Source: a virus. From it: 64,000 nt of DNA. Under the pieces are notes generated by a model. It saw only the letters and a list, made by a program, of their open reading frames with translations. It ran no database searches and was not told the origin of the DNA. The position numbers and the translations under genes were made by a program. This document shows positions 3,401 through 40,346 of this stretch, piece after piece. Every line of letters begins with the position of its first letter. Positions within the stretch are counted from its first letter, which is position 1. The stretch lies in the IMG/VR virus record IMGVR_UViG_3300045988_179151; one strand, 5' to 3'.

Positions 3401-4155
3401 ATGCTAAATCAATAGAAATTGATATTTCTGGTAAAGTTCCTGTTGACTACGGTCCAAGTTATTTAGTTCAATATATCACTGATGATACATTTGAAAAAGT
3501 TAAAAATGAGAATAGATATTTAAACTCTAACGATCCTCTAACTTATGATTCTAGGGCATACACTGTAACAGCCAGTCTTACAGATAAGATTCTCAATAAA
3601 AAACGAGACTTTACAAATCATACAATCGTTAGAAACAGTGACGTTTTAGCCCTACAAGTCAATCCTGCTGTCGCTGGAGCAAACAAAAATAATATCAGCT
3701 TGAATCAACCTTTTAGATTAACTAGTGATCAAATAGCAATGGCTAGTTCGAATGGACAATTAACAACAAATAATCTGTTAAATACAACCGATCTTCTAGA
3801 TGAGTACCCTGCTAAACGATTCATGCTTTTAGAAGACGGCGTTAAAATCTCAGACGCTGGTTGGATTAAACAATCGTCATTTGACTTTGCCGGCAAAACA
3901 TACGCCCTATATACGAGACCGTGGACCGAAAGCAAAGATCTTAATGAATCAGATTTTACTACAAATATCATTATTTCTCCGTCTTCTTCGAACTTGATTA
4001 CAAACAAGAACTATGATGCTTACACAGGTGTGATTTACAAGCTAAAAGAGGGTGTCTCACTCTCACCGACTCTCCAACCAATGTCAGCGCAACTAGTTTC
4101 TGATGCCGTCGAACGTAAGAGACTCGATCAAAAAAATCCTTTCAGTGCTCGGTGA
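463..4155 (+). CDS. N-terminal part of a giant secreted surface protein: YSIRK-type signal peptide, Ser/Thr/Glu-rich linker, HEXXH zinc-metallopeptidase-like motif. Ends prematurely at a frameshift
   Basis: MKFKDKKEYYSLRKFKGIGLASALVG...SVLA is a YSIRK-G/S signal. GVLGHELGHIMN is an HEXXH motif. No anchor in this ORF; it overlaps the next ORF in a different frame. Confidence 0.7.
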   Translation: MKFKDKKEYYSLRKFKGIGLASALVGLAFLTAPSVLADETAANSNNSNISAIAQADTESNQPTLESIASTASKTPVEPKEETSNIATENKSQENVVTTSTTKTTSEETHTSAPTEESSKAPENKPSEASEQPTTTQPVRSRSKRDTSSQESPYVSDKAKEVSKELSNTLVMTKEDTASTSKTLFKLDAGITPTDDEKAYNQKLAQAFDEYPELVRSQVHSLTFVREPNGMYGFTYSKSGDVNINMQYYHPELTGNEPGSINQYLGVLGHELGHIMNARSFRDNDTWSYSRDPKYAELAKEVYGSDENRFLISRWASDFADYVSYLRGDYKPQGSAQKIMTYMDDLFKGILTPREDRITPGLKAAVDSVNASSSKKLVYDGHVELVADYRNLDEVKQTVQTLNSNEITKVSSKSSTHYKTYGYKTLVTTKYTSGGANIAETTITDQGSVQQDLPGYNFVDKEVTHDGLLVEYKYSPKNTYSLDNEKLSADLDIQTGDSYIGDRNKANLRFTLKEQANNLSVSYKIQNLTTGVWQTLDGTDSEASVDSTNLKNQAKRSNSAHNLGSVETGYHATADLTYTLFTGAHGNNVYRMTATFFDGATELGSVSKDFVGKVAASKEDDLQDIELKSQVDLHDGKTIGAIIKNGNVYRPYIGAIGHLNPETKLANLDIAKARDEVYTNHGEVASGSQDNRVRYTILNENYRLNDIAAHITPIFKDMKDETTNRPFGSQDLDTSASKKDALGYTVATYNINNLGVTGITDTWGTFSYVGNDKTSRTDNVSIKIEILKVLNGKETVIDSKIVTKNVEIVNYDESLKPFFAEDYQIDRRASLGLATKSGDQYNIYYGTYGTNLEYVRAWSFDKWNEASFDSVERYRLSEIDPNKHIFLENMISLNIKNPNDAIFSDADYTVHFDVFKRSDGKPLNFAEIDLTSYVNRTPILTPKEYKETVYWLDESGTRHEIGLEVSKAGEVFKTRYAIPTNAKSIEIDISGKVPVDYGPSYLVQYITDDTFEKVKNENRYLNSNDPLTYDSRAYTVTASLTDKILNKKRDFTNHTIVRNSDVLALQVNPAVAGANKNNISLNQPFRLTSDQIAMASSNGQLTTNNLLNTTDLLDEYPAKRFMLLEDGVKISDAGWIKQSSFDFAGKTYALYTRPWTESKDLNESDFTTNIIISPSSSNLITNKNYDAYTGVIYKLKEGVSLSPTLQPMSAQLVSDAVERKRLDQKNPFSAR

Positions 4156-9781: not shown

Positions 9782-10038
9782 ACCCTCGACCGAAATGTCG
9801 TTAAACTAGCCTCTTTCGATTCTCTATGGATGTGCCTCGTTGCTTCTTTCTTTAAAATCTTTTCATCGGCGCATTCATAGAGTTTTTTTATAGAAACACT
9901 CCAAAAACAACGTTTGTCAGCAGTTTCAAATTAGTCATAAATTGATGTAAACTTTTAGTGCTTGTTTGTGTTTTTCTTTTGAGATTCATTCGGTTTTATG
10001 ATATACTTGTTATATCAAAATAAACGAAAGGACGTCTT

Positions 10039-11376
10039 ATGCATAAACGCAAGTTTACGGTTTTCACCCAATTACATGAAGAAAACAATGCCGATTTAAT
10101 TGAATATTTTGATGATCGTCGTGAACGTCAGTCCCAAATTATGCGTAAGACGTTCCAAGTTATTAAAAACACGGAAACGTTTGAAAAATCTAAATATAAT
10201 ACGTATCTTCAAAATAAATATGGAATTACATGTCGAATGGCAAATTCTATTATTTCTGATGCTCAAGGTCGATTAAATGCTTTGAAAGAATTAAAGGTTT
10301 TCGAAAAAGCACAAATCGAACAAAAAATTGGACATTTAGAAAAGAAAGTGCTTCCGAAGCTTATTTCAAAACGTGACGATTGCATTGCTCAATTAAAGGT
10401 TAATCCAAAAGGTTCACCCATTCGACTTCGAAATATTCGACGTAAGATTGTCGCTAAAAAGAATAAACTAAATAGACTGAAACAAAAGCTAGATAATGTG
10501 ACCTATCAGATTGAAACAGGACGTTTAAAATTATGTTTCGGAACTAAATATTTATTGAAGCGTGATTATAGACGTTTTGTTGAACAACGAGATAGTCAAA
10601 TGTCTTTCGTTGGTTCAAAGTCAGAACCCGCTCAAAACCAAATGCTTCAATTAAGCTATAATCCGAAAAACAACCAGTTTAACATCAAATTACGAAAAGA
10701 CTTCGATGGTTATAAAAATGCTAATAAAGACGATAAATACATTTACGGACGCGTTTATTTCAGACATCATAAGTCTGAATTGGTTTCAATTTTACGTCAA
10801 GGTTATAGTCCTCTCAGCTACAAGATTATTAAAAAGGGAAATCGTTTTTATCTATATTGTACCTTTGAGATCCATGTCGAAGATGATGAATTCTTGACAC
10901 GCTCGTCTTATGGAACAATTGGGCTTGACTTTAACAAAGGTTTCGTGACGTTGTCAGAAACCAATGAGTATGGTCATCTTCTACGAACGCAAGTCTTACC
11001 TTATCGCTTTAAATCTGGTTCTAAGACAAGAACCGATCTTCAAAAGTTAGTGAATGATGTTGTCGATTTAGCACTTCAAACAGGTAAAGATATTTGTATT
11101 GAAGATTTGAATTTCAAAAAGAAAAAGGCTAAAACCGAATCAAGACAAGGTTGTAAATATAACGAAATGTTACATTCTTTAACCTATCGTCAGTTTAGCC
11201 ATTTTATCGAAGGCATTGCCTTTCGAAATCTAGTTTATGTAAGAAAAGTCAACCCCGCGTGGACGTCTTGGTTGGCGAAAGAACTTTATTGTCCACGAAT
11301 GAAACTCAATGTTCACGTCGGAGCTTCATTCGTTATTGCGAGACGTGGACAAGGTTTTAAAGACGCCTTTAAATGA
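10039..11376 (+). CDS. tnpB: TnpB-like protein (445 aa) with RuvC-I/II motifs, but catalytic Asp replaced in RuvC-III and zinc finger lost (putative nuclease-dead, TldR-like)
   Basis: IGLDFN is the RuvC-I Asp motif; CIEDLNF is the RuvC-II Glu motif. C-terminus NPAWTSWLAKELYCPRMKLNVHVGASFVIARRG aligns to the canonical NPAYTSQ.C..CG...DADVNAAINIARRG with D->H and no CxxC pairs. Confidence 0.6.
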   Translation: MHKRKFTVFTQLHEENNADLIEYFDDRRERQSQIMRKTFQVIKNTETFEKSKYNTYLQNKYGITCRMANSIISDAQGRLNALKELKVFEKAQIEQKIGHLEKKVLPKLISKRDDCIAQLKVNPKGSPIRLRNIRRKIVAKKNKLNRLKQKLDNVTYQIETGRLKLCFGTKYLLKRDYRRFVEQRDSQMSFVGSKSEPAQNQMLQLSYNPKNNQFNIKLRKDFDGYKNANKDDKYIYGRVYFRHHKSELVSILRQGYSPLSYKIIKKGNRFYLYCTFEIHVEDDEFLTRSSYGTIGLDFNKGFVTLSETNEYGHLLRTQVLPYRFKSGSKTRTDLQKLVNDVVDLALQTGKDICIEDLNFKKKKAKTESRQGCKYNEMLHSLTYRQFSHFIEGIAFRNLVYVRKVNPAWTSWLAKELYCPRMKLNVHVGASFVIARRGQGFKDAFK

Positions 11377-11600
11377 GTTCTTTAAACAATCAGCCTTATA
11401 AAGATGTATGAACGCAAGACAGTTTGGCATCTCCCTTTAAGGCCTTGTTCAATTAGAAACTTCAATGACAAATCTTATTGTATGGCATTTGTCGAAATGA
11501 GATGAATTGAAGCGGAATAGGTTAACGGTTAGACCTTGAATTAAAAAATTCTAAAATTGATCTCAAAGGTGACTATTACTTTTTAATACTTTTGAGTAAC
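11377..11600 (+). ncRNA. Putative omega-RNA (reRNA) scaffold of TnpB-like copy 1
   Basis: About 190 nt right after the stop are ~96% identical to the matching region of copy 2. This is more conserved than the proteins (~90%). Ends ...ctaaaattgatc and then diverges. Confidence 0.5.
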
Positions 11601-11801
11601 CGTTCTAAAAACGCTGTCGTTCTCGACCGAGCAATCCTTACGATTGTGAGTTGAAATATCCTTTCTATATTCGGTCTGACGCACTAACTACTCAACTCAG
11701 ACCTAAACACTACAGCGAAACTCGTTGTAGTGCTTTTTTTATGGGCAACGTTCCACGAACGTTGCCGAAATCTATCGAAATATCACTAGAAAGAAGACAC
11801 T

Positions 11802-12269
11802 ATGCAAACACCCATCACAACATCATTAGACCATCTAATTCCTATTCTTTCCGAAGAACATCAACAGTTCATCGATAGTATCGTGCAAAAAATTGAATCG
11901 AATCACGTCACCTACATCCTACCATCACAAGGCTTATCATCGGTACAGATCGCTGAGACCGCATCCCGCACCATTGAACTTGCAACAGACGGGCAAACTT
12001 ATGTAGCAAAACCACACTTGATTGAATCATTTGACGAATTTGATGCCAAAATGGTAGATCCACTCAAACAAAAACTATCAAATTCAAGCATTGTCATCAT
12101 TGAAGCCAACTATAACAACTATTTGGAAGTAATCCCTCAAATGTTTATTCTTGCCGATGAACTTGCAAGTACCGGTGCAAAAATTGTCATTCCCTGTACA
12201 AAAGACGAATTAACCGTTATTAAAGAAGTTGAGCGAGCGGTTCGTTCAATGTTAAAACCTGTAGACTAA
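11802..12269 (+). CDS. Hypothetical protein (155 aa)
   Basis: ORF with upstream RBS region. No motif recognised. Confidence 0.4.
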   Translation: MQTPITTSLDHLIPILSEEHQQFIDSIVQKIESNHVTYILPSQGLSSVQIAETASRTIELATDGQTYVAKPHLIESFDEFDAKMVDPLKQKLSNSSIVIIEANYNNYLEVIPQMFILADELASTGAKIVIPCTKDELTVIKEVERAVRSMLKPVD

Positions 12270-12485
12270 AAACTCAAAAAATAATATAATAGATGTAATA
12301 TCTAAACATAGAAAGAGTTTTCTCAAATGCACCCAAAAACATTTACATCGTTTATTCACAATAAAATTCTAGCTCAGGATCTCAAAGGTTATAAGCCTGC
12401 TATAAAATCATCCGATATGACCGATTATGCAAAAAAAACCTATCGTCAAATCGCAAAATCCTTTAAAAAATCTCGGAAATAGAAA

Positions 12486-14213
12486 GTGAGTAAACACATG
12501 CAAAGACTTGATTTTAATATTTCAGACCAAACCATTCTATCATTTGACGTCGATCATAAAACAAAAACGGCACGTCTTATTGAAACAACAGATGAATTCG
12601 CAGCACGAGTCTTATTGACTCCTGATGAGCGAACCTACAACGGTATTGAACGACGTTTGAACGAATTCCAACAATCAGATAAACCCTTAGTCGAACACTT
12701 GATGGATATTGAAAACGATGGTTTTCACGCGCCAATGCAACAAAACCTAAATATCAACAATAGCGATAACGCTATAAAAGAAACGAAGGCTCCAACAGAT
12801 GCATCTCTCATCGAATTGCCAAGTAATTTCGGAAATACAAATATCAACGGGCTTCAGCAAAAAGATAATATTCAAATTGAAAATGAATCTTATTTTGTAA
12901 AATTGGACTCATTATCGCCAATCGTCAATGGTTCGTGGGATAACAACTTCGATTCACAATATTCATCTGTCTCTGAAGCCATTACATCAATCCTACTCAA
13001 AAACATTAAAAACGCCGATCAACTAAACAGCGTTCTTTACGAATGGCGTGAATTTGACTTAAATGGGAAAAAAGTTACAGGTACGATCTCAAAAAACTTC
13101 TTACAAGAAAACGAAGAAGAACATGTCCTGTCCATTCAAAACAGATCCGATAAATACACACATATTTCTATCAAAGAATATGAAAAAAACATGTATGACG
13201 TCAATTCCGAAACCCGTATCAAGAATCTAATGACGGCTTTTGCATCCGCAAATGTCGATAAAAATGCGAGCCAAAACTTTCTCATACAACAAGCCGCATT
13301 TGATATGTTCATCGGTAACCAAGACCGCGTAAACAATCCGTCAAACTTTGTATTTGCCTACAATACAAAAGACCAAACAACACGATTAGTTAATTTGGAC
13401 TATGGCCGTGCATTACCAATGCTTTGGACTGCTACATCTGAAGCCAATTGCGACATTAAAGAATTATTAGACGAAGACCTTCCAGACTTTGCAGAAGACC
13501 TCAATCGTTCAAATGATTCCATTCTAAGTGGTATGCAAAAAAATCAAGCTATGGATTTTCTACACGACCATGGATTTGAGCCATTTGAAGTTAACATTCA
13601 ACAACTTCATACGGACCTTGACGAGTTGAAAGAGCGAATTCTCGCATCCGACGCGCCTTATAAGAAATTCGCTGAAATGAAGATTGAATCATTTAGAGAA
13701 ATGTTAAATAGTGATTTTTCAAAGAACTTCTATAAAGAAATCACTACCGAAAAACCAGAACCCGTTGTCTTTAAAAAATTCGATGTCGTTTTAGGTTATT
13801 TCCCAACTACCGAAGTTCCTAGTGACAACTACATCTCCCACGAAAGCCAACTTGAAGAAAACAAAACAGAAGGTGAATATCGACCACTTGTTCTATTAGC
13901 TGAGAAAAACGGTAAATACATAGCCGTTCAAGGACGTAGCGCCGAAAACCAACAAGAATGGCCCCACCACTATGCGCTTCAAAATGCAAAAGAAGCTGGA
14001 TTAGTTGAAGAAACCACATTAACTACAAATATCGAACAAATTCTTTACATTGAACCGGAAGCTCTTCAAGAAATGACGCCTCTAGGCCACCTGTCGCAAA
14101 ACGACAAAGAAGCTTTTCTAAAAGAATTCGCAAGAGAAAACCACGTTCAAAAACAAATAGAGCGACATCATGCGTCGCAATCAAAAGAAAAGGATCATGG
14201 ATTAGAACCCTAA
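12486..14213 (+). CDS. HipA-like / PI3-PI4-kinase-like protein kinase domain protein (575 aa)
   Basis: FIGNQDRVNNPSNFVF resembles the catalytic loop (GN.D.H.KN.S in HipA; DRHxxN in PI3K). NLDYG resembles the DFG-like Mg-binding motif. RBS aaagtgagtaaacac before the ATG. Confidence 0.45.
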   Translation: MSKHMQRLDFNISDQTILSFDVDHKTKTARLIETTDEFAARVLLTPDERTYNGIERRLNEFQQSDKPLVEHLMDIENDGFHAPMQQNLNINNSDNAIKETKAPTDASLIELPSNFGNTNINGLQQKDNIQIENESYFVKLDSLSPIVNGSWDNNFDSQYSSVSEAITSILLKNIKNADQLNSVLYEWREFDLNGKKVTGTISKNFLQENEEEHVLSIQNRSDKYTHISIKEYEKNMYDVNSETRIKNLMTAFASANVDKNASQNFLIQQAAFDMFIGNQDRVNNPSNFVFAYNTKDQTTRLVNLDYGRALPMLWTATSEANCDIKELLDEDLPDFAEDLNRSNDSILSGMQKNQAMDFLHDHGFEPFEVNIQQLHTDLDELKERILASDAPYKKFAEMKIESFREMLNSDFSKNFYKEITTEKPEPVVFKKFDVVLGYFPTTEVPSDNYISHESQLEENKTEGEYRPLVLLAEKNGKYIAVQGRSAENQQEWPHHYALQNAKEAGLVEETTLTTNIEQILYIEPEALQEMTPLGHLSQNDKEAFLKEFARENHVQKQIERHHASQSKEKDHGLEP

Positions 14214-14638
14214 TGACTCATAAAAAATATACAAATATCTTCGTTGACATTGAACTATTAAACGGTGATATCGTTAAATACCAAATACCAAATGACCTAC
14301 AAAAACCAATGAAACAAGCCTGGTTCGATAATAGTCTTAGCGAAGTTCTTTTAGACGCGCTCATCAATGTGCCAACATCACCATATAAAAAAGATGGTTC
14401 TGTGAAACTACATCTTGGTAGAATCGTCGCTATTCACTGTTTACACAAAAAGCAACAATTAAGAACGCGAGGTCAGTTCTTAACCAACGATGCATGGCAA
14501 GGAAAACTTGACAAAACACAAATTAAGTTCCTCTTACACGACCACTCGTTTTTGAACAAAGGCCGGATTCGATTTGACCTTTTTCGGTGGCAACGCAGAT
14601 TTTCCTCTAAAACGACGTCTAAGCGCTTAAAAAAATAA
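14213..14638 (+). CDS. Basic hypothetical protein (141 aa), translationally coupled to the kinase (TAATG overlap)
   Basis: ATGA/TAATG stop-start overlap at 14211-14215. Lys/Arg-rich. Confidence 0.4.
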   Translation: MTHKKYTNIFVDIELLNGDIVKYQIPNDLQKPMKQAWFDNSLSEVLLDALINVPTSPYKKDGSVKLHLGRIVAIHCLHKKQQLRTRGQFLTNDAWQGKLDKTQIKFLLHDHSFLNKGRIRFDLFRWQRRFSSKTTSKRLKK

Positions 14639-14781
14639 ATGGATAATTACATTACTCGCAAATAAAAATACAACAGAAGACAAAAGAGAGCCTCTGAGGA
14701 CTCTTTTGAATACAATCATGAACTATTAGCCAATATTTTAGCCTACGTTATGGATACTGACTTCATTCAAATTTTTAAACG

Positions 14782-15723
14782 ATGGAAATCCCTGATTTTA
14801 ATCGGGGGAAATCGTTCCTTTCTTTAAAATTTGTCAATGATTTGACTTTTTTGTGGAAACCGATTGAATTTAAACGTCCTCAAGTAGACTTAGTTCGTAA
14901 TCGCGATTATAGCTTCAAAAATGATATGTTGTCTATGAATACGATTAACGGACGTATTTTCGTTAAAGTTTATGGTCTTCCTGAAAATCATTATTTCGAT
15001 GGTTCGTGGAAACTTGGAATTGGAAAAGTAGTTCGAAGTGGAAAACATTGGTTTTTCCATATTTCCGTAACTAAAGAAGTTCCTGATTTCGAAATGAAAG
15101 ATTTGAAACACGTTGTTGGAATTGATCGTGGATTACGTCAAATCTTAACAACTTATGACGAAAAAGGTCAAACTCGTTTTGTGAATGGTGCGTTTATTTC
15201 GAAAAAACGCAAACATTATGCTAAATTGAGAGCACGTCTTCAAGCTAAAGGAACGAAATCAGCGAAACGTCGTTTACGTTCTTTAAGTGGACGAGAATCC
15301 CGTTGGATGAGTGATGTAAATCATCAGTTATCTAAGACACTCGTTCAAACTTATGGTAAACAAACGTTATTCGTTCTTGAAGATTTAACAGGCGTGACTT
15401 TTGAGACGGTTCATTCTCGTAAAAAAGAGAATCGTTATGAGCATCATTCTTGGTCATTTTATGATTTAGAACAAAAACTTCGGTATAAGGCTCACTTAAA
15501 TGAAAGTGAAGTTGTCTTAGTAGATGCTCATTATACGAGTCAACGTTGTCCTAAATGTGGAACGATTGATAAATCGAATCGTGATAAAGACATTCACCAA
15601 TATACATGTTCTAATTGTGGTTATTCGAGTAATGATGATCGAGTAGGTGCAATGAACATTTATGAACTTGGAAAATGGTTTGTCTCAGGCGTTGAAGAAC
15701 CAGCCTTTTCGATAAATGAATAA
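14782..15723 (+). CDS. tnpB: TnpB (IS605 OrfB family), compact or N-terminally truncated (313 aa), with intact RuvC and zinc finger
   Basis: VVGIDRGLRQ is RuvC-I; FVLEDL is RuvC-II; DAHYTSQRCPKCG...CSNCG...NDDRVGAMNI is the Zn finger plus RuvC-III. An in-frame stop lies 2 codons upstream of the ATG, so no longer N-terminus exists. Confidence 0.7.
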   Translation: MEIPDFNRGKSFLSLKFVNDLTFLWKPIEFKRPQVDLVRNRDYSFKNDMLSMNTINGRIFVKVYGLPENHYFDGSWKLGIGKVVRSGKHWFFHISVTKEVPDFEMKDLKHVVGIDRGLRQILTTYDEKGQTRFVNGAFISKKRKHYAKLRARLQAKGTKSAKRRLRSLSGRESRWMSDVNHQLSKTLVQTYGKQTLFVLEDLTGVTFETVHSRKKENRYEHHSWSFYDLEQKLRYKAHLNESEVVLVDAHYTSQRCPKCGTIDKSNRDKDIHQYTCSNCGYSSNDDRVGAMNIYELGKWFVSGVEEPAFSINE

Positions 15724-15960
15724 ATAGACATGCGTAAACGTATGTCATTGCCGTAGCCCATCAACCTGCGGATTTAGAAATACTTTTCTAAAAAGAAGTC
15801 TCAATTGTTTCGTTTGTTTAAACGAAGTGTGTGGGAGGAAGTTGCTTCTGCTTGACCACATTCAAATTAAGGACAAACCACCTACTTTAGTGGGTGGTAG
15901 TTGATCCCCCTTCAATATGATGGCACAAACACTACCGATGATGAGCTTCGACTTCGCGCA
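15724..15960 (+). ncRNA. Possible omega-RNA-like structured 3' region of TnpB 14782
   Basis: Structured noncoding stretch with hairpins (cgtttgtttaaacg; ccacctactttagtgggtgg) directly after the TnpB stop. By analogy only. Confidence 0.3.
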
Positions 15961-16075
15961 CGATACGACATCATTCACTTGGCCAACCAACTCTTACCAA
16001 AAGAAACACTAGCCGACTATTTTATTCCAAATTTGGATAAATCTAATAATCAATAAACGAAAGGATACAAAACTT

Positions 16076-18505
16076 ATGCGTACTTTACTACTACTCCGCG
16101 GTGCACCAGGCGCCGGAAAATCAACTTGGATTGAAGAAAACAATTTACAAAATTACACTCTTGAGGCGGATAAATTCCGACAACTCACATCAAATCCCGT
16201 TCTTGGATTAAACGGCGATCTCCACATTACGCAAGACAACGACCGACTAGCATGGGATTTACTGTTCCAAGCGCTTGAATCACGCATGCAACGCGGTGAT
16301 TTCACTATCGTTGACGCGACACACTCAAATGAAGCCATGTTCAACAAATATCGAGGGCTCATCGAAAAATATCGATATAAGATTTATTACAAAACTTTTG
16401 ACGTTGATCTCGAAGAACTTGAACGTCGCAATTTAACGCGCCCTGAGCACAAACGTGTTCCTCTTGACGCTGTCCGCCGTGTCAAAGCCTTAGTTGATAA
16501 CACAAAACCAACATCATCAGCAACAGAAATCAACGACATTTCTGAAATCATCAATTACTGGACAGACGATTTAACCAACAAATACGAAAACGTCAAAATC
16601 ATCGGTGACCTCCAAGGTTGTTACTCCGTGCTCAAAGAAGCAATTGGCTCTGAACTAAATCCAAACACCAAATATGTCTTCGCTGGGGATATTCTCGACC
16701 GAGGCATTGAAAACAAAGAAGTCTTAGATTTCATGCTATCCATCTATACAAAGCCAAACGTTGTCTTCGTCGAAGGAAACCACGACACACATTTGCGTAA
16801 TTGGGCAATGGACACATGGCCATTGAAGAAATCAGGTGAACCAAATATTCCTCGTGAATTCAACTTTAAAACTCTTCCTCAATTATTGGATCAAAAGAAA
16901 AAATCAGAATTTACGATTGGAACTCATGAGGTTGATGACGCTATCTATTACACTGTAAATGACAAACTAACAACCATCCCGGTTTGGACGTCCTACGATG
17001 AATCCATTGTCACAGAACCACATCTCAAATACAAAGATGGCACTCTCTGGCTAAAACCATATAAAACATCACGGACCGAAATCGACACCGGAATTCCGGT
17101 TAATCGAATCGATTCCGAACAACTAAAATCAAAAGTTCGACAATTCGTACGTCGATTCCGACTAGCTTACGCTTTTGAATTCCACGATCAAAAATACTTT
17201 GTCAACCATGGTGGTATTTCCGCTCTTCCAAACATGGTCACCATTTCAGGTGAACAACTCATCAAAGGTGTCGGAGCCTATGAATATCAAATCGATGAAG
17301 CTTGGGAACAAAGCTATCTCGCTAATAAAACGCAAGGATTTATCCAAGTGCACGGTCATCGCCACACAGAATCCACTGAACACTCTATCTGTCTTGAAGA
17401 TGATGTTGAATATGGCGGTAATCTCGTCATTCTTGAAATTTCAAAAGACGGTCATGAAGTTAAAAAATTCAAAAATAAAGTTTTCAAAGTACCAACTGAA
17501 GATGACTTTGAACGTGAACGTAAAGCCTGGATCGAAGACACACAAAACCCAATCACAAATAAAATGATCCACGATAAATACATCAAAGTCAAAGACCTTG
17601 ATGATAACCTTATGTCGTTGAACTTCAGCGAAAAAGCTTTCTACAAAAAGAAATGGACGGAAAACACCATTACAGCTCGTGGATTATTCGTCGACAAAAC
17701 GTCAGGTGATATCAAAATCCGTTCCTATAACAAATTCTTCAACCTCAACGAAAATGCAGAAACATCCGTCCGAGAATTGAAAAAGAAAGTCGCCTATCCA
17801 TTGATGGCTTATGAGAAGTATAACGGATTCTTAGGAATTGCCTCATCAGTAAACAGCGTGTTCACATTAGCTTCAAAATCAACAACAAGTGGACCTTTCG
17901 TAGAATACTTCCAAGAAATCTTTAACGATTTGACTGACTCTGAAAAAGAACAACTAAAACAATTATCTGAAAAATATCATTGTTCGTTCACATTTGAAGT
18001 GATGCACATTGATGACCGACATATCATTGACTTTAGTCAAAACAGACTCGTCATCCTAGATGCTATTCCTAATTCGTATAACATTAACGGAATCACTGTT
18101 GATGCCACATTCTCCGAAAACGTTCTCAGTCAATTAAACATTGAATCTGATTTCTTCTCACGCAAAGAACTCGTCAAAGAATTCACCTCAATGGAAGACC
18201 TCATGCGTTACATCAATGAACACAAGCATGACCGTACATCTGAAGGGTTGGTTATTGAGGATCAAAACGGTTATATGTTCAAAGTAAAATATGAATATTA
18301 CACAGAACTTAAACGATTGCGTGGTCTCCGAGACGTGGTGAAAGCGTATTACCATACAAAAAACGTTACGCAATACGCCAAAAATGCCACTCAAGTCGCA
18401 TTCGCGGCTTGGTGTAAACAACAACCGTTTGAAAAATTAAAAGAATGTCACATCATTGACTTATTTAAAGAATACGAAGAACAACTCGGCACGAAAGTGC
18501 TATAA
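16076..18505 (+). CDS. pnkp: Polynucleotide kinase-phosphatase (Pnkp-like RNA repair enzyme): P-loop kinase, calcineurin-like phosphoesterase and ligase-like nucleotidyltransferase domains
   Basis: GAPGAGKST is Walker A. IGDLQGC / AGDILDRG / EGNHD are metallophosphatase motifs (the first His is replaced by Gln). AYEKYNGFLG is a K-x-NG motif-I-like ligase element. 809 aa with the bacterial Pnkp architecture. RBS cgaaaggata. Confidence 0.6.
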   Translation: MRTLLLLRGAPGAGKSTWIEENNLQNYTLEADKFRQLTSNPVLGLNGDLHITQDNDRLAWDLLFQALESRMQRGDFTIVDATHSNEAMFNKYRGLIEKYRYKIYYKTFDVDLEELERRNLTRPEHKRVPLDAVRRVKALVDNTKPTSSATEINDISEIINYWTDDLTNKYENVKIIGDLQGCYSVLKEAIGSELNPNTKYVFAGDILDRGIENKEVLDFMLSIYTKPNVVFVEGNHDTHLRNWAMDTWPLKKSGEPNIPREFNFKTLPQLLDQKKKSEFTIGTHEVDDAIYYTVNDKLTTIPVWTSYDESIVTEPHLKYKDGTLWLKPYKTSRTEIDTGIPVNRIDSEQLKSKVRQFVRRFRLAYAFEFHDQKYFVNHGGISALPNMVTISGEQLIKGVGAYEYQIDEAWEQSYLANKTQGFIQVHGHRHTESTEHSICLEDDVEYGGNLVILEISKDGHEVKKFKNKVFKVPTEDDFERERKAWIEDTQNPITNKMIHDKYIKVKDLDDNLMSLNFSEKAFYKKKWTENTITARGLFVDKTSGDIKIRSYNKFFNLNENAETSVRELKKKVAYPLMAYEKYNGFLGIASSVNSVFTLASKSTTSGPFVEYFQEIFNDLTDSEKEQLKQLSEKYHCSFTFEVMHIDDRHIIDFSQNRLVILDAIPNSYNINGITVDATFSENVLSQLNIESDFFSRKELVKEFTSMEDLMRYINEHKHDRTSEGLVIEDQNGYMFKVKYEYYTELKRLRGLRDVVKAYYHTKNVTQYAKNATQVAFAAWCKQQPFEKLKECHIIDLFKEYEEQLGTKVL

Positions 18506-18518
18506 AAAGGAAGTTAAC

Positions 18519-18767
18519 ATGAAAATCAAACAAACTACCGTCCACCGTATTGACGTGCCCGAACGCTTCCAAACCAACTGGGAGCCTATCGTCCACTCAT
18601 GGATTGACACGCATAATGATGTGTTTCCCGACGACATCATCGAAAACATAGAGCCTCAAATTGAGTATTATACTCGCAACGACGGCGAATCCATGATGGA
18701 GGGCTATATCAACATTACGTTGAGTTACCTAGTAGACGCTACAAAAGCGCACGACTTCCCACATTAG
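18519..18767 (+). CDS. Small hypothetical protein
   Basis: Internal ATG (MKIKQTTVHRID...) with RBS aaaaaggaagttaac. The longer ORF-track start overlaps pnkp. Confidence 0.45.
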   Translation: MKIKQTTVHRIDVPERFQTNWEPIVHSWIDTHNDVFPDDIIENIEPQIEYYTRNDGESMMEGYINITLSYLVDATKAHDFPH

Positions 18768-18778
18768 AAAGAAAAACT

Positions 18779-19045
18779 ATGACTACTAAAAAGACAGAAC
18801 TCACATTTGAAGAATCAATCGATCAAGCCCTCGAGATTCTACAACAATTACGACAAAAAGAAAATAACAACGCAGCATTCATCCTGACAGCCTCACAAGA
18901 TGACCCGACAACCCCATCATCCATTCTTGTGTCATGCGTCGCGACAGGACCTATTACGAATCAACTAAACGGACTCGCGCAATATGTCGCAAGCGATTCA
19001 CGCATTATGCCCGTCTTAGAAAAATTCTATAAATTAACAAAATAG
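18779..19045 (+). CDS. Small hypothetical protein (88 aa)
   Basis: ORF with RBS gaaagaaaaactatg. Followed by a terminator. Confidence 0.45.
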   Translation: MTTKKTELTFEESIDQALEILQQLRQKENNNAAFILTASQDDPTTPSSILVSCVATGPITNQLNGLAQYVASDSRIMPVLEKFYKLTK

Positions 19046-19075
19046 AGTGCTTATTCAAGCACTCTATTTTTCTTT
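19043..19075 (+). terminator. Rho-independent terminator
   Basis: tagagtgctt-attc-aagcactcta followed by tttttcttt. Confidence 0.7.
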
Positions 19076-19099
19076 GTCCCGATTTAGCTTATCTTTTTG

Positions 19100-21180
19100 T
19101 CCCCGTTCATTTCTTATCTAGCAAAATTGACGTCCTCCCGGGGTTGAAACCCCGGGATTCCCGTTTACCTCATGGTAAACGGGCTCAGTTCTCGTCTCCA
19201 ACTCATGGATGAGTCAAAGGCGACTGCTAAACAGCAATGACCTGCTTCGGGTAAAGACCCGATCTCAGTATGTGTCTGAGCATTGGAAGTTTCACAAGAT
19301 GGAAGACACATATTAAAAATACGTATCGTTCGCCTCAAAACCTCTTTATACTGTGTAGAAAGAAGAGGTTCTGTCTTGTGCGGTAACGAAGGAGCGTCAG
19401 TCCCTCGGGTTTTATCGTCTTTTCCTTGACAAACATTTTATTTTAGATACCAAGCTAAACGCTCGGTTTCGATTGGTTCTTGAAGGAAGTCCTTCATTTG
19501 CTTATAGAAAGCAGGAAAATCCTGTTCTAATTGTTCTTGTTGGTAGTGACCGTTCTCAATATGTCCGATGAGAAAGGCTGAGTAGAGATCGCGTTGTACG
19601 TCTGGGTATTCACTGGACAGGTCATACACGCGAGTGGAAAGCGATTTTTTATCAAAGGTTTGAGTGATGTGGTTGTACTGGCTCGGTTTCACGTCTTTTG
19701 GTGAAATGACTTCGACGTCAATACCGAGTTGAGAAGCTCTTGTTTCAAGAGCGACTCTCAAAGCGCTTGGAGCGGCCCTAAAAATGGCTTTTCCAAAACG
19801 CTTCTTACTATAAGGTCGATTGGTCTTTGGATTGATGCGAATATCTCGACTTCGTCTTTGAAGTCCTTTGACACCCAATTCCTCAATCCGGATGCTCGAC
19901 GCTTGTGAAACAATTCGGCTAACTAGTTGACCTTGAATCTTTTTACGCTCTTCAGATAAAGAGCGGTAAACCTTGCGCCTGCGATTTCGCAAACGAACTT
20001 GTCGATTGGACGGGCGTTTAAATCGGGCGCCTTTCTTGATTTTACCCCGCTCATCATAGCACTCAGGGTTATTCACTCGTTGACTGCGCTCAATGTTTCG
20101 GTCGAGTTCTTTCAGGAGTTTTTCCTTCCGAGCGATGGTTGTAGGTACTAAATCAACCAAGGCAACTTCTGTTGGTGACGCAAAGGCCACCGTCGAAATA
20201 CCCGGGTCAATTCCAACCACTCCTTCACCTTTGGTAACCTTTGGCGGTGGAAATCCCTGACAGACAATCTGGAGGTAATAAACCTTCTTTCCTCGAATGG
20301 TTTTTCGAACGATTTGGACATATTTGATTTTCTCACTACGCATCAAGCTGATTTGTTGGTATTTGTTAAAAGCTTTAACTGGAATATCTACAAAAGTTGA
20401 AGCTTTGTGGATATAAAGTCGATAAGCAATACCTTCTTTATCTGACGGTTCGAGTCTAGTTCCTGTCGTGTTGACACGATTGCGGAAACTAACATCTAAA
20501 TCGAACTTACTTCTAAAATGCACTTTGTGCGGTTTGATTTGATAGAAGAGAACTTTTTCTAAAGTTTTATAAGCTTGAGCGGCAATCACCTGGATTTCAC
20601 CTGAGTTGAATTGCTGGTAAGGCGAACCCGGTTTTCTTCGTTGCTGAGCAAGAACTTTTTGAAGTTCCGATTCGGTCAAGCTATACGCTTTTCGTAATTC
20701 GAAAAGAGCGTTGTCATAGTCTTTGACTTGTTTGCTTAAAGCTTTGTCTTTTTTCTTAGTCTTTTTCAAAGCAGCTAATTTAGCAACAACAGGGCGTCGT
20801 GCTTCTAGCAATTCTTGATACTGGGAGTTTTGCTTGAGGGCTTCAAATCGTTTGAGTCCAAAGCTCAGTGCCTCATTATAAGCACTATTTGAAATACGCA
20901 AACTTTTTTCCAATCGTTTTGCAATTGACTCAGGAAACGGAACCTTTGTCGAAACCACATAACTTGAGGTTTGTGCTCGCATATGGGCACACTCCTTTCC
21001 ATTTACTTTTTATCAATAGTATATCATAAATGATATCAAACATCAAGTTTTACCGGTTCAGAAACCTGAGGATTTATTTGATGAGAAACGTAAATGAACG
21101 GCATTAAATGGTATATTTGAGAATATCGTCGGCCCGATTCATCCTGGGGTTGAAACCCCGGGCTTTCTCGGTCCATCTAT
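19100..21180 (-). mobile_element. TnpB-only IS-like element bounded by matching subterminal hairpins
   Basis: cccggggttgaaaccccggg at 19137-19156 and cctggggttgaaaccccggg at 21143-21162 flank the TnpB gene. About 340 nt of structured noncoding sequence lie 3' of the gene (19100-19437). Confidence 0.55.
19438..20982 (-). CDS. tnpB: Large TnpB-like RuvC nuclease (514 aa), no zinc finger
   Basis: GIDPGISTVAFA is RuvC-I; IRIEEL is RuvC-II; DVQRDLYSAFLIGHI is a RuvC-III-like D..(N/Y)(A/S)A..(N/L)I. No Cys pairs in the C-terminus. Confidence 0.55.
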   Translation of the reverse strand: MRAQTSSYVVSTKVPFPESIAKRLEKSLRISNSAYNEALSFGLKRFEALKQNSQYQELLEARRPVVAKLAALKKTKKKDKALSKQVKDYDNALFELRKAYSLTESELQKVLAQQRRKPGSPYQQFNSGEIQVIAAQAYKTLEKVLFYQIKPHKVHFRSKFDLDVSFRNRVNTTGTRLEPSDKEGIAYRLYIHKASTFVDIPVKAFNKYQQISLMRSEKIKYVQIVRKTIRGKKVYYLQIVCQGFPPPKVTKGEGVVGIDPGISTVAFASPTEVALVDLVPTTIARKEKLLKELDRNIERSQRVNNPECYDERGKIKKGARFKRPSNRQVRLRNRRRKVYRSLSEERKKIQGQLVSRIVSQASSIRIEELGVKGLQRRSRDIRINPKTNRPYSKKRFGKAIFRAAPSALRVALETRASQLGIDVEVISPKDVKPSQYNHITQTFDKKSLSTRVYDLSSEYPDVQRDLYSAFLIGHIENGHYQQEQLEQDFPAFYKQMKDFLQEPIETERLAWYLK

Positions 21181-21190
21181 GTAATAAATC

Positions 21191-22294
21191 TTAATTTTTT
21201 AACTTACATTTAAAGTAAATCTCAGTACACAACCATTGCACTGAACCGACAATGGCTCCTACTGCAAAGATAGACTCAAAACTCAATTGCAAATAATGCA
21301 AAAACAACCATAGTAATGTTGGGGTCATAACCGCTGTCGGTACGGCATAAATAAGCTGAGCAACACCGTTCAAATCATGACGATATGAACGACTAATTGC
21401 AAGCCACATATAATATCTTAGTTTGGTAACAATCTCAATTGGCAAGAAGAGCCAGATAACTGGAGAAATGATTCCTTGATAAATTGATTCAGGTAACCAA
21501 GTTAAACCGAAATAGGCAATGAAATACAGAGATACAATAGAAATCAATGCTCCGACTGCGGCTTTCCAAAAGACAAATTTATTGTCTTTATATGGAATAG
21601 CTTCATTCAAACCAACATTTCGAGATACATGACTGTTTAATAGTCCGGCCATGGAATCAACCCAACCTTCGGGTAACATCATAAGATTTGAAATCCAATA
21701 TTTGATACCGGCATAAATAGGATTAATTGTAATTGTTAGACCAACACCAATAATTGCTGATATACGTGGCGCAAGACGTCGAACCAACTCCCATTTTACA
21801 ATTATCCAATAAGACTTAATTTCTTTCCATGAAAACTCAAATCCTTTAGAAAAGAATTGTGGTATTGGTTTTGTCCATAAAAACCAATATAATGGTATTG
21901 CATTCGTTATTATGTTTACAATTAACGCTGTGTTCACACCCAACTTCAAAACATGAGTTGTGAAGAAGATACCAATCAACATAGACCAAGCTATAGTATG
22001 ATCTAAAACTGTAGCCTGTTTACTTCGACCTCGTGTTCTTAAATATGATGGAATAACTGTTGCCCACGGCGCCGCTATCAAAATTGATACAATTGACAGT
22101 TGAAAATAAGGAATATAGAATGGTAAGTCCGATGGTGCTACACCCAAAATTAATAGTAATTTAGGAAGAAACATGAAACTACCAATAGCCGATGGTAATA
22201 GCATGAGATAGAATAAATAGATATGGTTTTTAACTACTCTTGATTCTATACTTAATCCTTGTTTCTCTATTAACTTGGGCAATGTGGCCGTCAT
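21191..22294 (-). CDS. Polytopic membrane protein (367 aa, about 10 TM), unknown function
   Basis: Hydrophobic segments throughout. Start lies about 25-45 nt from the putative guide region of TnpB-like copy 2. Confidence 0.5.
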   Translation of the reverse strand: MTATLPKLIEKQGLSIESRVVKNHIYLFYLMLLPSAIGSFMFLPKLLLILGVAPSDLPFYIPYFQLSIVSILIAAPWATVIPSYLRTRGRSKQATVLDHTIAWSMLIGIFFTTHVLKLGVNTALIVNIITNAIPLYWFLWTKPIPQFFSKGFEFSWKEIKSYWIIVKWELVRRLAPRISAIIGVGLTITINPIYAGIKYWISNLMMLPEGWVDSMAGLLNSHVSRNVGLNEAIPYKDNKFVFWKAAVGALISIVSLYFIAYFGLTWLPESIYQGIISPVIWLFLPIEIVTKLRYYMWLAISRSYRHDLNGVAQLIYAVPTAVMTPTLLWLFLHYLQLSFESIFAVGAIVGSVQWLCTEIYFKCKLKN

Positions 22295-22337
22295 TGACGT
22301 TCTAGCGGTGTAATAGGTTGAAGATAATACTACCGTT

Positions 22338-22561
22338 ACTCAAAAGTACTAAAATGTAATAATAATAACTTTTAAGATCAATTTTAGAATTTTTCAATTC
22401 AAGGTCTAACGGTTAACCTATTCCACTTCAATTCATCTCATTTCGACTAATGCCAGGCAATAAGACTTGTCATTGAAGTTTCTAATTGAACAAGGCCTTA
22501 AAGGGAGATGCCAAACTGTCTTGCGTTCATACATCTTTATAAGGCTGATTGTTTAAAGAAC
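22338..22561 (-). ncRNA. Putative omega-RNA scaffold of TnpB-like copy 2
   Basis: The reverse complement of 22372-22561 matches 11377-11566 with about 7 mismatches. The sequence diverges beyond ...ctaaaattgatc. Confidence 0.5.
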
Positions 22562-23899
22562 TCATTTAAAGGCGTCTTTAAAACCTTGTCCACGTCTCGC
22601 AATAACGAATGAAGCTCCGACGTGAACATTGAGTTTCATTCGTGGACAATAATGTTTTTTCGCCAACCAAGACGTCCACGCAGGGTTGACTTTTCTTACA
22701 TAAACTAGATTTCGAAAAGCAATGTTTTCGACAACATTAGAAAATTGACGATAGGCTAAAGAGTGTAACATTTCGTTGTATTTACGACCTTGTCTTGATT
22801 CTGTTTTAGCCTTCTTCTTTTTAAAATTCAAATCTTCAATGCAAATATCTTTACCTGTTTGAAGAGCAAGTTCGACAATCTCATTCACTAACTTTTGAAG
22901 ATCCGTTGTTGTCTTAGAACCAGCTTTAAAACGATACGGCAAAACTTGCGTTCGTAGAAGATGACCATACTCATTGGTTTCTGACAAGGTGACGAAACCT
23001 TTGTTGAAATCAAGACCAATTGTTCCATAAGACGAACGTGTTAAAAAATCATCATCTTCGACATGAATCTCAAAAGTGCAATATAGATAAAAACGATTTC
23101 GCTTTTTAATAATTTTGTAACTAAGAGGGCTATAACCTTGTCGTAAAATTGAAACAAGTTTAGATTTGTGATGTCGGAAATAGACGCGCCCGTAAACGTA
23201 TTTATCTTCTTTACTAGCATTTTTGTAATCTCCGAAATCTTTTCGCAATTTAATGTCAAATTGATTGTTTTTCGGATTATAACTTAATTGGAGCATATGA
23301 TTTTGTGCTTTTTCGGATTTTGAACCAACGAAAGACATTTGACTGTCTCGTTGTTCAACAAAACGTTTATAATTGCGCTTCAATAAATATTTAGTGCCAA
23401 AACACAATTTTAAATGTCCAAACTCAATTTGATAAATTATGTTTTCTAATTTTTGTTTTAGTCGATTTAGTTTATTCTTTTTATAGACGATTTTGTGTCG
23501 AACATTTCGAAGTCGAACTGGTGAACCTTTTGAATTAGATTTTAACTGAGCAATGTAATCATCGCGTTTTAGAATAAGCTTTGGAAGCACTTTCTTTTCT
23601 AAATGTTCAATCTTTTGTTCAAGCTGCTTTTTTTCGAAAACCTTTAATTCTTTCAAAGCATTTAATCGACCTTGAGCATCAGAAATAATAGAATTTGCCA
23701 TTCGACATGTAATTCCATATTTATTTTGAAGATACGTATTATAACTTGATTTATCAAACTCATCTGCGTTTTTAATTAGATGAAACGTCTCACGCATGGA
23801 TTTCGCATAACATTCACGACGATCATCAAAATATTCAATTAAATCAGCATTGTTTTTCTCATGCAATTGAGTGAAAACCGTAAACTTACGTTTATGCAT
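22562..23899 (-). CDS. tnpB: TnpB-like protein, paralog of 10039..11376 (~90% aa identity), same D->H RuvC-III change and no zinc finger
   Basis: C-terminus NPAWTSWLAKKHYCPRMKLNVHVGASFVIARRGQGFKDAFK. Substitutions cluster in the N-terminal half. Confidence 0.6.
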   Translation of the reverse strand: MHKRKFTVFTQLHEKNNADLIEYFDDRRECYAKSMRETFHLIKNADEFDKSSYNTYLQNKYGITCRMANSIISDAQGRLNALKELKVFEKKQLEQKIEHLEKKVLPKLILKRDDYIAQLKSNSKGSPVRLRNVRHKIVYKKNKLNRLKQKLENIIYQIEFGHLKLCFGTKYLLKRNYKRFVEQRDSQMSFVGSKSEKAQNHMLQLSYNPKNNQFDIKLRKDFGDYKNASKEDKYVYGRVYFRHHKSKLVSILRQGYSPLSYKIIKKRNRFYLYCTFEIHVEDDDFLTRSSYGTIGLDFNKGFVTLSETNEYGHLLRTQVLPYRFKAGSKTTTDLQKLVNEIVELALQTGKDICIEDLNFKKKKAKTESRQGRKYNEMLHSLAYRQFSNVVENIAFRNLVYVRKVNPAWTSWLAKKHYCPRMKLNVHVGASFVIARRGQGFKDAFK

Positions 23900-23998
23900 T
23901 GATGTTCCTTTCTATGTATTTTCAATATACTAATTATATCACAAATCAGAAAGAACATCAAATAAAAAAAGTCAAAAATCATTACAACTATAAAAAAG

Positions 23999-24229
23999 TT
24001 ATTTCAATTTTGTACTATTTTGAAACTGCTGACAAACCCAAAAAGCATCATTAACTCCAAATAGAACCGTTATTCGTTCTACCAAACTTTTATCTGCTAA
24101 AAGACTAAAGCATAAGATCCAACCAATTTCAATAGCATTATCAGCTAGTGAACCTATAAAAGCATGATAAAGCATCTGTGTCAGCTTTTGACGGGACCAA
24201 GGCTTATTCGTTAACATTAGATACCTCAA
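23999..24229 (-). CDS. Small hypothetical protein (76 aa)
   Basis: ORF overlapping the 3' end of the next gene by 26 nt. Weak support. Confidence 0.25.
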   Translation of the reverse strand: MRYLMLTNKPWSRQKLTQMLYHAFIGSLADNAIEIGWILCFSLLADKSLVERITVLFGVNDAFWVCQQFQNSTKLK

Positions 24230-39728: not shown

Positions 39729-40346
39729 ATGCGAAAATATATGAAATTAAGTCAATATGCAAAAAATTTAGGAATTCACTATAAAACAGCGTGGCGACAC
39801 TGGCATGATAACAAGCTCAATGGATATCAAGATCCCGTAACAGGCACTATTTATGTGTTAGATCAAGATACGAATGTGCCAATAGGTTCTCAAATAAGAG
39901 CGATTTTATATGCACGTGTTTCAAGTACAACTAACAAAGCTTCTTTAGACGGTCAATTGGATAGAATGCGTCAATTTGCCGCTGCAAAAGGATACACTGT
40001 TGTCGATGAACGAAAAGAAATTGCATCTGGTTTAAATGAAAACAGAAAACAATTATTACCGCTTCTTTCTCGACAAGATTATGATGTTTTAATTGTAGAA
40101 CATAAAGACAGATTGAGTCGATTTGGTTCCACATATATTGAACAAGCTTTGATTAATAATGGTGTAAAATTAGAAATTATTAATAAAATTGAAAATAAAG
40201 ATAATGAACTTATTGACGATTTTATTTCTATTATTACAAGCTTTTGTGGTCGCATTTATGGACGCAATCGCAAGACTAAAACACAAGAAATCATAAACCA
40301 ACTAGAATTGACACCTGAAAGGACAAAAGATGAAACTAGCGTATAA
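39729..40346 (+). CDS. tnpA: IS607-family TnpA: MerR-like HTH plus serine recombinase/resolvase catalytic domain
   Basis: MKLSQYAKNLGIHYKTAWRHW is the HTH. AILYARVSSTTNKASLDGQLDRMRQFA is the Ser-recombinase active-site region. Confidence 0.7.
   Translation: MRKYMKLSQYAKNLGIHYKTAWRHWHDNKLNGYQDPVTGTIYVLDQDTNVPIGSQIRAILYARVSSTTNKASLDGQLDRMRQFAAAKGYTVVDERKEIASGLNENRKQLLPLLSRQDYDVLIVEHKDRLSRFGSTYIEQALINNGVKLEIINKIENKDNELIDDFISIITSFCGRIYGRNRKTKTQEIINQLELTPERTKDETSV

Follow-up and report, generated by a model that had tools for sequence, protein, structure and literature searches.

Two inverted TnpB-like genes in a metagenomic viral sequence probably belong to mobile guide-RNA elements of known families with IS607-type junctions

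Introduction

The stretch of DNA analysed here, 64,000 nucleotides (nt) from the IMG/VR virus record IMGVR_UViG_3300045988_179151 (hereafter the window), carries two inverted copies of an element that consists of a gene for a TnpB-like protein of 445 amino acids (aa) and a structured RNA region directly 3' of it. An initial annotation had read the pair as probably nuclease-dead, TldR-like genes bracketing an 11-kb cargo segment. With regard to the protein, the closest described relative is RIIIr-4, a major TnpB clade defined by a His in RuvC-III and by the lack of a zinc finger; this clade is enriched in viruses, and from its conservation the authors predict probable activity (Altae-Tran et al., PNAS 2023, PMC10691335). 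The window proteins share with RIIIr-4 the RuvC-III His, the absence of a C4 zinc finger, the intact RuvC-I Asp and RuvC-II Glu, the occurrence on viruses and mobile elements and the long 3' non-coding region, but they are not accompanied by the RHH/MazE partner noted for an archaeal sub-branch of the clade. With regard to the RNA, the closest relative is Rfam RF03065 (IS605-orfB-I RNA), which is matched over its full length at twice the gathering score, with the same helices and the same position directly 3' of an OrfB/TnpB gene. There was no difference in structure. Whereas Rfam records a small RNA motif, comparison of the copies shows its apparent role as a guide-RNA scaffold that ends at the element boundary.

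The junctions of the element resemble those of the IS607 family, in which a serine transposase integrates at TGGG and the GG core ends up at both junctions. The TnpB of this family uses TGGG as its target-adjacent motif (TAM), its scaffold ends in ...UCGG, a G at position -3 tells the target from self, and matching cores are needed for excision (10.1101/2023.11.20.567912). Like the Clostridium botulinum IStron of the same study, the window elements have a G-rich TGGG target and predicted TAM, the core dinucleotide at both junctions, a scaffold ending in ...CGG, a G in the flank against a C in the right end at position -3 and a guide equal to the right flank, and they have neither inverted repeats nor a target duplication. 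In contrast to the IStron, they carry no internal serine transposase and no group I intron detectable by Rfam, their protein belongs to another TnpB clade (His, no zinc finger), and the family includes a CG-core variant and junction identity that extends to a third nucleotide. ISDra2 and other IS200/IS605 elements have in common with them the layout of gene and RNA, a guide taken from the right flank and a TAM at the left flank; the window elements differ by lacking a Y1 transposase and a left-end hairpin, by a G-rich rather than a TTGAT-type target, and by an Asp-Glu-His rather than an Asp-Glu-Asp site.

Two further systems bear on the question of function. TldRs do not move and are found as single copies linked to fliC or oppF loci; their active sites are degraded and not conserved, and the match of their guides lies in a distant promoter (Wiegand et al., 10.1101/2023.11.30.569447). 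They resemble the window proteins in being derived from TnpB, in their altered RuvC-III, in the missing zinc finger and in the 3' guide RNA, whereas immobility, the link to fliC or oppF, a degraded site and a distant-promoter guide were all not seen in the window family. Cas12m2, which has a His-Asp-Asp RuvC triad, binds DNA but does not cut it (PMC10442227); it is alike in having a His in the triad and in weak similarity of sequence and fold. However, the His of Cas12m2 replaces the first Asp, the protein is CRISPR-associated and the zinc finger is kept, and its binding without cutting cannot be transferred to the window family. As set out below, we consider it about 80% probable that the two copies are mobile TnpB guide-RNA elements of known families, with junctions of the IS607 type and guides drawn from the right flank.

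Two diverged copies of one element

A DNA comparison within the window delimited an inverted repeat of ~1.69 kb, 9912-11603 against 22332-24037, each arm of which holds one of the two open reading frames (ORFs) for a TnpB-like protein, 10039-11376 (+) and 22562-23899 (-). The two 445-aa products align without gaps and are identical at 389 of 445 positions; the close homology that had been proposed is therefore real, while the proposed figure of ~90% has to be lowered to 87%. The coding sequences (CDS) are 87.8% identical at the nucleotide level, and the first 190 nt past the stop codons are well above this (182/190, 95.8%), which bears out the observation in the initial annotation that the 3' region is ~96% identical and more conserved than the proteins. 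Synonymous divergence (dS) between the two CDS was 0.44 overall, with a ratio of non-synonymous to synonymous divergence (dN/dS) of 0.16, indicating that both genes have been maintained. The two copies are old paralogues under purifying selection that were inserted independently in the backbone of a large phage-like or plasmid-like element, copy 1 between genes and copy 2 inside a membrane-protein gene. Inside the CDS there is also a tract of 115 nt (~10207-10321 against ~23617-23731) that is perfectly identical in spite of the overall dS. Since other copies vary there synonymously, this tract looks like gene conversion between the window copies and not like functional constraint.

A conserved RuvC site with a histidine

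Both proteins carry the motifs GLDFN (RuvC-I, Asp297), IEDL (RuvC-II, Glu355) and NVHVGASFVIARRG (His426), there is no CxxC motif in either of them, and just 12 residues separate the TS motif from the His motif; in these respects the first reading of the proteins was accurate. The NCBIfam profile guided_TnpB (NF040570) was matched at E = 1e-10 to 1e-12 with 40-48 bits, against a cut-off of 100, and the TIGR01766 cut-off of 32 was exceeded by copy 2 (38.2 bits) but not by copy 1 (30.9 bits). A Pfam profile search of the 445-aa proteins returned no match. An AlphaFold model built from 71 relatives reached a predicted local distance difference test (pLDDT) of 94.6 and a predicted template modelling score (pTM) of 0.86; among solved structures, Foldseek ranked Cas12f, Cas12k, Cas12m and Fanzor2 as the best matches at E ~1e-8, and viral TnpB and Fanzor models likewise matched. 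An hhalign comparison brought the RuvC-I Asp, the RuvC-II Glu and the YTS motif into register with those of the canonical TnpB of the window (14782-15723). Profile matches, predicted fold and hhalign together identify the 445-aa proteins as members of the TnpB family, in agreement with the earlier assignment and as far as a modelled structure can tell.

The family is large, with 2,931 matches in clusters at 90% identity and 1,458 clusters at 50%. Only five residues are invariant among the 71 relatives, the most distant of which are 24% identical: G168, D297, N299, E355 and H426. His426, the residue of the RuvC-III motif, is thus conserved in 71/71 and sits at the start of the last helix; D442, 16 residues further on, is Asp or Glu in 67 of the 71 (94%), and a zinc finger is present in 0/71. 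Since His426 is invariant together with the Asp and the Glu across such diverse relatives, it is a conserved trait of the clade and not a sign of decay. By their two diagnostic traits, the proteins fit the published clade RIIIr-4.

By BLASTP there was no similarity of the 445-aa protein to the 514-aa TnpB-like protein of the window or to a 444-aa protein in the related locus L009, and tblastn against phages and plasmids gave only 'TnpB-related' genes of 23-27% identity, mostly from Thermus. An exact-sequence look-up of the copy 2 protein retrieved no record, peptide-pattern scans of species-representative genomes and of IMG/VR found no relative, and near-identity DNA searches with the element and 20 kb of backbone against cultured phages found nothing.

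A structured guide-RNA scaffold at the 3' end

The region downstream of both genes matched RF03065, at 11393-11606 (+) with 189.3 bits and at 22329-22545 (-) with 195.2 bits, both matches covering model positions 1-214 of 214 (gathering score 94.2). When the Rfam structure was mapped on 21 copies from related contigs, 93.9% of base-pair cells held standard pairs, and this fraction dropped to 31-49% when the partners were slid by 1-3 columns. Compensatory changes on both sides occurred in 7 pairs, a number reached by 0/500 shuffles. This match and the covariation substantiate the initial view that the 3' region is RNA-like.

The structure also revises the assignment of the guides. The variable stretch after CTAAAATTGATC, which had been taken for the guide, is the loop of the last scaffold hairpin, and the block TACTTTTGAGTAAC(C/G)G, where the copies re-align, comprises the 3' half of this hairpin and the 3' arm of a long-range helix. 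Within this block, the C/G difference is compensated ~75 nt upstream: copy 1 reads ACGGTT/AACCGT and copy 2 reads ACCGTT/AACGGT. Across the copies, the compensating pair is C-G in 14, G-C in 4 and U-G in 1. The scaffold ends at 11602 or 11603 in copy 1 and at 22333 or 22332 in copy 2, and from these boundaries we place the start of the guides at TTCTAAAAACG (copy 1) and TAGTATTATC (copy 2). The idea that each copy has a guide of its own is therefore retained, at a different position.

At its 5' side, the RNA appears to reach into the gene. Synonymous diversity among 13 full-length copies was 0.2-0.4 along the gene and then fell, within the last 25 codons, to 0.07 and further to 0.02; between the window copies, dS was 0.03 in the last 138 nt of the CDS. 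Because of this fall, the functional RNA probably starts inside the 3' end of the gene, as it does in studied TnpB systems, and the data suggest a scaffold start within the last 75 nt or more of the CDS. A 23-mer of the RNA was not found in IMG/VR. A single search hit lay in a metagenome-assembled genome of an uncultured Erysipelotrichaceae member, which is too thin a basis for naming a host.

Empty alleles, junctions and mobility

Every copy ends in TTTTGAGTAAC(G/C)G(T/C), after which unrelated DNA follows, and copies in related contigs have at least 17 different right flanks. The clearest view of an insertion was provided by the membrane-protein gene next to copy 2. The ORF 21191-22294, which had been annotated as a membrane-protein gene whose start abuts the guide-like segment, encodes 367 aa, whereas its homologues have 440-444 aa, and the codons for the missing N-terminus lie beyond copy 2, at 24217-24037. 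In the syntenic relative L028 the gene is intact and reads GATGCTTTTTGGG-TAGTATTATCTTCAACC. In the window this sequence is interrupted by ~1,704 nt with GGT at both junctions, the aligned blocks, which overlap by these 3 nt, running up to 24036 and resuming from 22334. On this alignment, copy 2 has split a gene of ~440 codons, and the ORF is only its 3' fragment. Furthermore, in both L028 and L029 the un-inserted allele has, immediately 3' of TGGG, the very sequence of the copy 2 guide, so that the sequences give the relation of empty site, predicted TAM and guide exactly for this copy.

A second pair of filled and empty alleles is formed by L020 and L007, respectively, and further empty-site matches exist. 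For copy 1, whose insertion is also present in L001, L017, L034 and L035, no empty allele was found; its boundaries can be placed only to within 1-3 nt, since both junctions carry CG(T), and its orthologous left-flank site in L017 reads G-CG. A protospacer search had been proposed in the initial annotation. In the window and 35 fetched loci it found un-inserted alleles, in the case of copy 2 next to TGGG, and no other match to the guides.

At ~10 independent sites, of which seven have defined left ends and the others were inferred from empty-site matches or by eye, the flank and the right end finish with the same three nucleotides (GGT, CGT or GGC). This includes both verified pairs, copy 2 against L028 and L020 against L007. 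Position -3 is G in the flank at 10/11 sites and always C in the right end; the flank thus ends G-GG or G-CG and the right end C-GG or C-CG, the dinucleotide covaries between the two, and the empty site holds a single copy. The left end neither repeats the right end in inverted form nor folds into a significant hairpin (z = 0.1 to 0.9 against shuffled sequences). Judged by these alignments, the junctions follow the IS607-family pattern, with no inverted repeats and no true target duplication. The requirement for matching cores during IS607-family excision would account for the GG/CG covariation between the junctions, and RNA helix pairing for a third, internal covarying position.

From these observations we propose the following scheme. 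The element would be a compact unit without a transposase of its own, made up of a sigma-70-type promoter, the gene for the 445-aa TnpB-family protein, a scaffold of ~210 nt and a guide that would be transcribed from whatever DNA lies past the right end. It would insert at 5'-G-GG or G-CG, with the dinucleotide repeated at the right end and there preceded by C and not by G. By analogy with studied TnpB systems, the RNA would be expressed and processed, and the resulting complex would recognise the un-inserted allele by the TAM GGG or GCG and 16-20 nt of target. The Asp-Glu-His site would cleave DNA, the filled allele would be spared through the C at position -3, and retention or homing of the element would be favoured. 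Mobilisation would occur in trans by an IS607-type transposase such as that at 39729-40346.

One copy in L009 (11549-11700) has a guide, CGCAGGTTCGAATCCT, that equals the T-arm of a tRNA, and a full tRNA with the same 16 nt lies ~100 nt downstream, which suggests that the element entered a tRNA gene or array and that a partial duplication took place.

Weighing of alternative explanations

Several findings weigh against the interpretation as mobile elements of known families with IS607-type junctions. Identity among the copies of one genome is no higher than 87-90%, and several sites are shared between samples; for these reasons transposition must be rare, and part of the spread could be vertical. 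Within or adjoining ~20 examined copies there was no transposase, and hence the route of mobilisation can only be inferred. IS607-family transposases do occur elsewhere, in the window at 39729-40346 and in L009, so that mobilisation in trans would be possible; the ends of the window IS607-type element showed no similarity beyond chance to those of copy 1. A Pfam scan of 40 window ORFs revealed no Y1 transposase of the kind that marks IS200/IS605 elements. Left ends differ between copies, a 65-nt module, GTTTGTCAGCAG, being present only in some of them, and several left boundaries could not be defined. The junction identity spans 3 nt, whereas a serine recombinase exchanges 2, and the copy in L015 (~2250-3881) breaks the junction rule, with an 8-nt repeat, AGGCGCAT, and a G-G mismatch in the helix. 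On the side of the protein, the placement in RIIIr-4 was made by two diagnostic traits and not by a tree, accessible published work yielded no case of cleavage by an RIIIr-4 (Asp-Glu-His) TnpB and none is shown here, and Cas12m2 provides an example of a His-containing triad that binds without cutting (PMC10442227). We also considered the 65-nt left module as a dispersed genomic repeat; it was found only at the two copies, which ruled this out. In L015, taken together with L012 and L018, the AGGCGCAT repeat lies on either side of the copy, at a palindromic site.

An explanation that we regard as unlikely is that the element is mobile but that its Asp-Glu-His protein is, throughout the clade, a binder, a nickase or an RNA-processing enzyme only. 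Such a protein would block or mark the un-inserted allele, or process its own RNA, without cutting double-stranded DNA. The loss of the zinc-finger/target-nucleic-acid-binding insertion would be in agreement with this. Against it, the three residues capable of binding metal are strictly conserved, and a downstream acidic residue is conserved as well. A His ligand is compatible with activity in enzymes of the RNase H fold, the DEDH site of Argonaute being an example. The authors of the clade predict activity (PMC10691335), and the accessible text of Nety et al. (PMC10278001) states no a priori expectation that rearranged TnpB clades are inactive. The same accessible text, however, reports no activity result for the RIII-r4 orthologues in its TAM screen and describes some orthologues that process RNA without cutting double-stranded DNA, and Cas12m2 (PMC10442227) sets a precedent for this. 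It is improbable, then, that the clade consists of non-cutting RNA-guided binders or nickases whose many diverged paralogues, maintained by purifying selection in these large elements, serve as programmable blockers that silence or stall un-inserted competitor alleles or as regulators of downstream genes, and not as homing nucleases. If it were so, the initial annotation would have proposed the correct mechanism, which would then hold for an entire major TnpB clade that has kept its mobility.

Less likely still are domesticated, TldR-like repressors that have lost nuclease activity and whose fixed guides repress genes, such as the membrane-protein gene in the case of copy 2. In common with many TldRs, the proteins have another residue in place of the RuvC-III Asp and have lost the zinc finger; the copies, at 87% identity, are old and subject to purifying selection, some guides overlie the promoters of downstream genes, for example in L020 and L024, and a His-containing triad can abolish cleavage, as in Cas12m2. 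Yet the site is a conserved one, its His being invariant with the Asp and the Glu in 71 relatives and D442 acidic in 94%, there is no conserved neighbour gene at the 17 or more sites with their differing contexts, and both filled and empty alleles exist. Moreover, copy 2 breaks its supposed target gene instead of regulating it, the intact homologues of this gene in L028-L033 have no TnpB adjoining, and for the guides the only further matches in the window and the fetched loci are un-inserted alleles. With a family-wide His, a mobile multi-copy element and guides that, among the sequences searched, match un-inserted alleles only, the proposal of probably nuclease-dead, TldR-like genes is not borne out, and we hold repression of this kind to be very unlikely. 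A pair of nuclease-dead RNA-guided repressors flanking a cargo would be notable if true, but the evidence is not in its support.

A composite transposon or invertible cassette that moves or flips the 10.7-kb kinase/RNA-repair segment is hardly credible: 1.7-kb inverted repeats do flank the segment and the tract of perfect identity hints at gene conversion between them, but the ends of the element are asymmetric, so that with two inverted copies neither strand has a left end paired with a fitting right end, two more TnpB insertions, unrelated to the copies, lie in the interior, and in L028 gene content, order and orientation are unchanged across the 11 kb, with an intact membrane-protein gene and without copy 2. 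The insertion carrying a 313-aa TnpB is also absent from L028. Because L028 keeps the block without copy 2, the 11 kb are native backbone and the two copies independent insertions; the 'bracketing' of a cargo came about by chance, through two insertions into a region where other TnpB elements have accumulated as well.

The interpretation as mobile guide-RNA elements thus places the pair among further members of already published families, and TldR-like repression is not supported. Since the protein clade, the RNA family and the junction logic have all been published, nothing here is new in kind, and the expectation of a new instance does not hold. The locus does provide a clean natural example of the major RIIIr-4-type TnpB clade with a guide-RNA scaffold that is an existing Rfam family, and it extends the IS607-style junction logic to transposase-less elements of this clade. 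With exact element boundaries, a predicted G-rich TAM (G-GG or G-CG) and a C at -3 that would protect the filled site in hand, the natural empty allele is a ready-made target, and DNA cutting by the clade becomes directly testable.

Genomic surroundings

Table 1. Coordinates of the two elements, their parts and neighbouring TnpB-related features in the window.
Feature	Position	Strand	Remarks
Copy 1 of the element	9913..11602	+	~1,690 nt; from inverted repeat and junction table
Copy 1 left-flank motif A-CG	9910..9912	+	TAM-like position -3 plus core dinucleotide CG
Copy 1 promoter-like site TTGAGA-17-TATACT with TG	9979..10007	+	kept in all copies
Copy 1 TnpB-like gene, 445 aa	10039..11376	+	RuvC Asp297/Glu355/His426, no zinc finger; fits clade RIIIr-4
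Copy 1 guide-RNA (omega-RNA) scaffold, predicted	11393..11602	+	Rfam RF03065, covariation, synonymous diversity
Copy 1 predicted guide TTCTAAAAACGCTGTCGTTC	11603..11622	+	homology among copies stops here; length inferred
Terminator-like hairpin and T-run	11708..11741	+	~105 nt beyond the copy 1 right end
~1.2 kb insertion absent from L028	14715-15900	+ (ORF)	ORF 14782-15723, 313-aa canonical TnpB with zinc finger
514-aa TnpB-like gene	19438-20982	-	guided_TnpB 88 bits, no zinc finger, RuvC-III Asp kept
Split membrane-protein gene, 3' fragment	21191..22332	-	367-aa ORF 21191-22294 begins at an internal Met
Copy 2 of the element	22333..24036	-	~1,704 nt, inside membrane-protein gene; L028 alignment
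Copy 2 predicted guide TAGTATTATCTTCAACCTAT	22313..22332	-	same as intact allele in L028, L029
Copy 2 guide-RNA scaffold, predicted	22333..22545	-	Rfam RF03065, 195.2 bits
Copy 2 TnpB-like gene, 445 aa	22562..23899	-	
Copy 2 promoter-like site TTGATG-17-TATAAT with TG	23933..23961	-	
Copy 2 left-flank TGGG	24037..24040	-	TAM-like motif including core GG
Split membrane-protein gene, 5' fragment, ~60 codons	24037..24217	-	translation matches N-terminus of intact homologue P0270
IS607-family serine transposase, 205 aa	39729-40346	+	NF033518 160 bits against cut-off 110

The window contains further genes of the TnpB family. The 313-aa TnpB looks N-terminally truncated, since its HMM (hidden Markov model) match begins at profile position 101. 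The 514-aa gene lies in a segment (19133-21165) with 27-nt direct repeats on either side that contain a CCCGGGG...CCCCGGG hairpin, and a weak, sub-threshold match to HgcC RNA was seen at 19114-19217 (-); this gene occupies the same site in L028 and L029 and is absent in L030-L033. The IS607-family transposase overlaps a 533-aa TnpB-like ORF, the two spanning 39729-41931 (+); this ORF (guided_TnpB E = 4e-11) has no CxxC and keeps the DRD motif, and it constitutes the fifth TnpB-family gene in the window, with a neighbouring transposase that possibly acts in trans. Between the two copies, the gene at 16076-18505 (+) encodes a protein of 809 aa that joins domains of a P-loop kinase, a metallophosphatase and a T4-type RNA ligase and is of the RNA-repair type; it is conserved in L028.

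The related contigs are metagenomic assemblies of 70-480 kb with LPXTG adhesins, type I-C cas genes, tRNAs and replication genes. Many surface proteins of the LPXTG, G5 and MucBP types and tRNAs occur on the large ones, and the type I-C cas genes (Cas7, Csd1, Cas5d, Cas3) are located at 169-3621 in L007 and at 1695-4010 in L009. Recognisable virion genes were absent from the examined stretches of the related large contigs, and the backbone may be a giant plasmid-like element and not a phage. Identification of the host element as an oral 'Inocle' was considered and dropped, the reported GC content being 32% against ~38% here, with no other tie.

The extended -10 motif TATGATATA(C/A)T occurs five times in the window, against 0.09 expected, at 9997, 21018 (-), 25105 (-), 39690 and 53452. 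As it precedes three different TnpB-family elements and two backbone genes, it is apparently a strong promoter type shared by the genes of this DNA.

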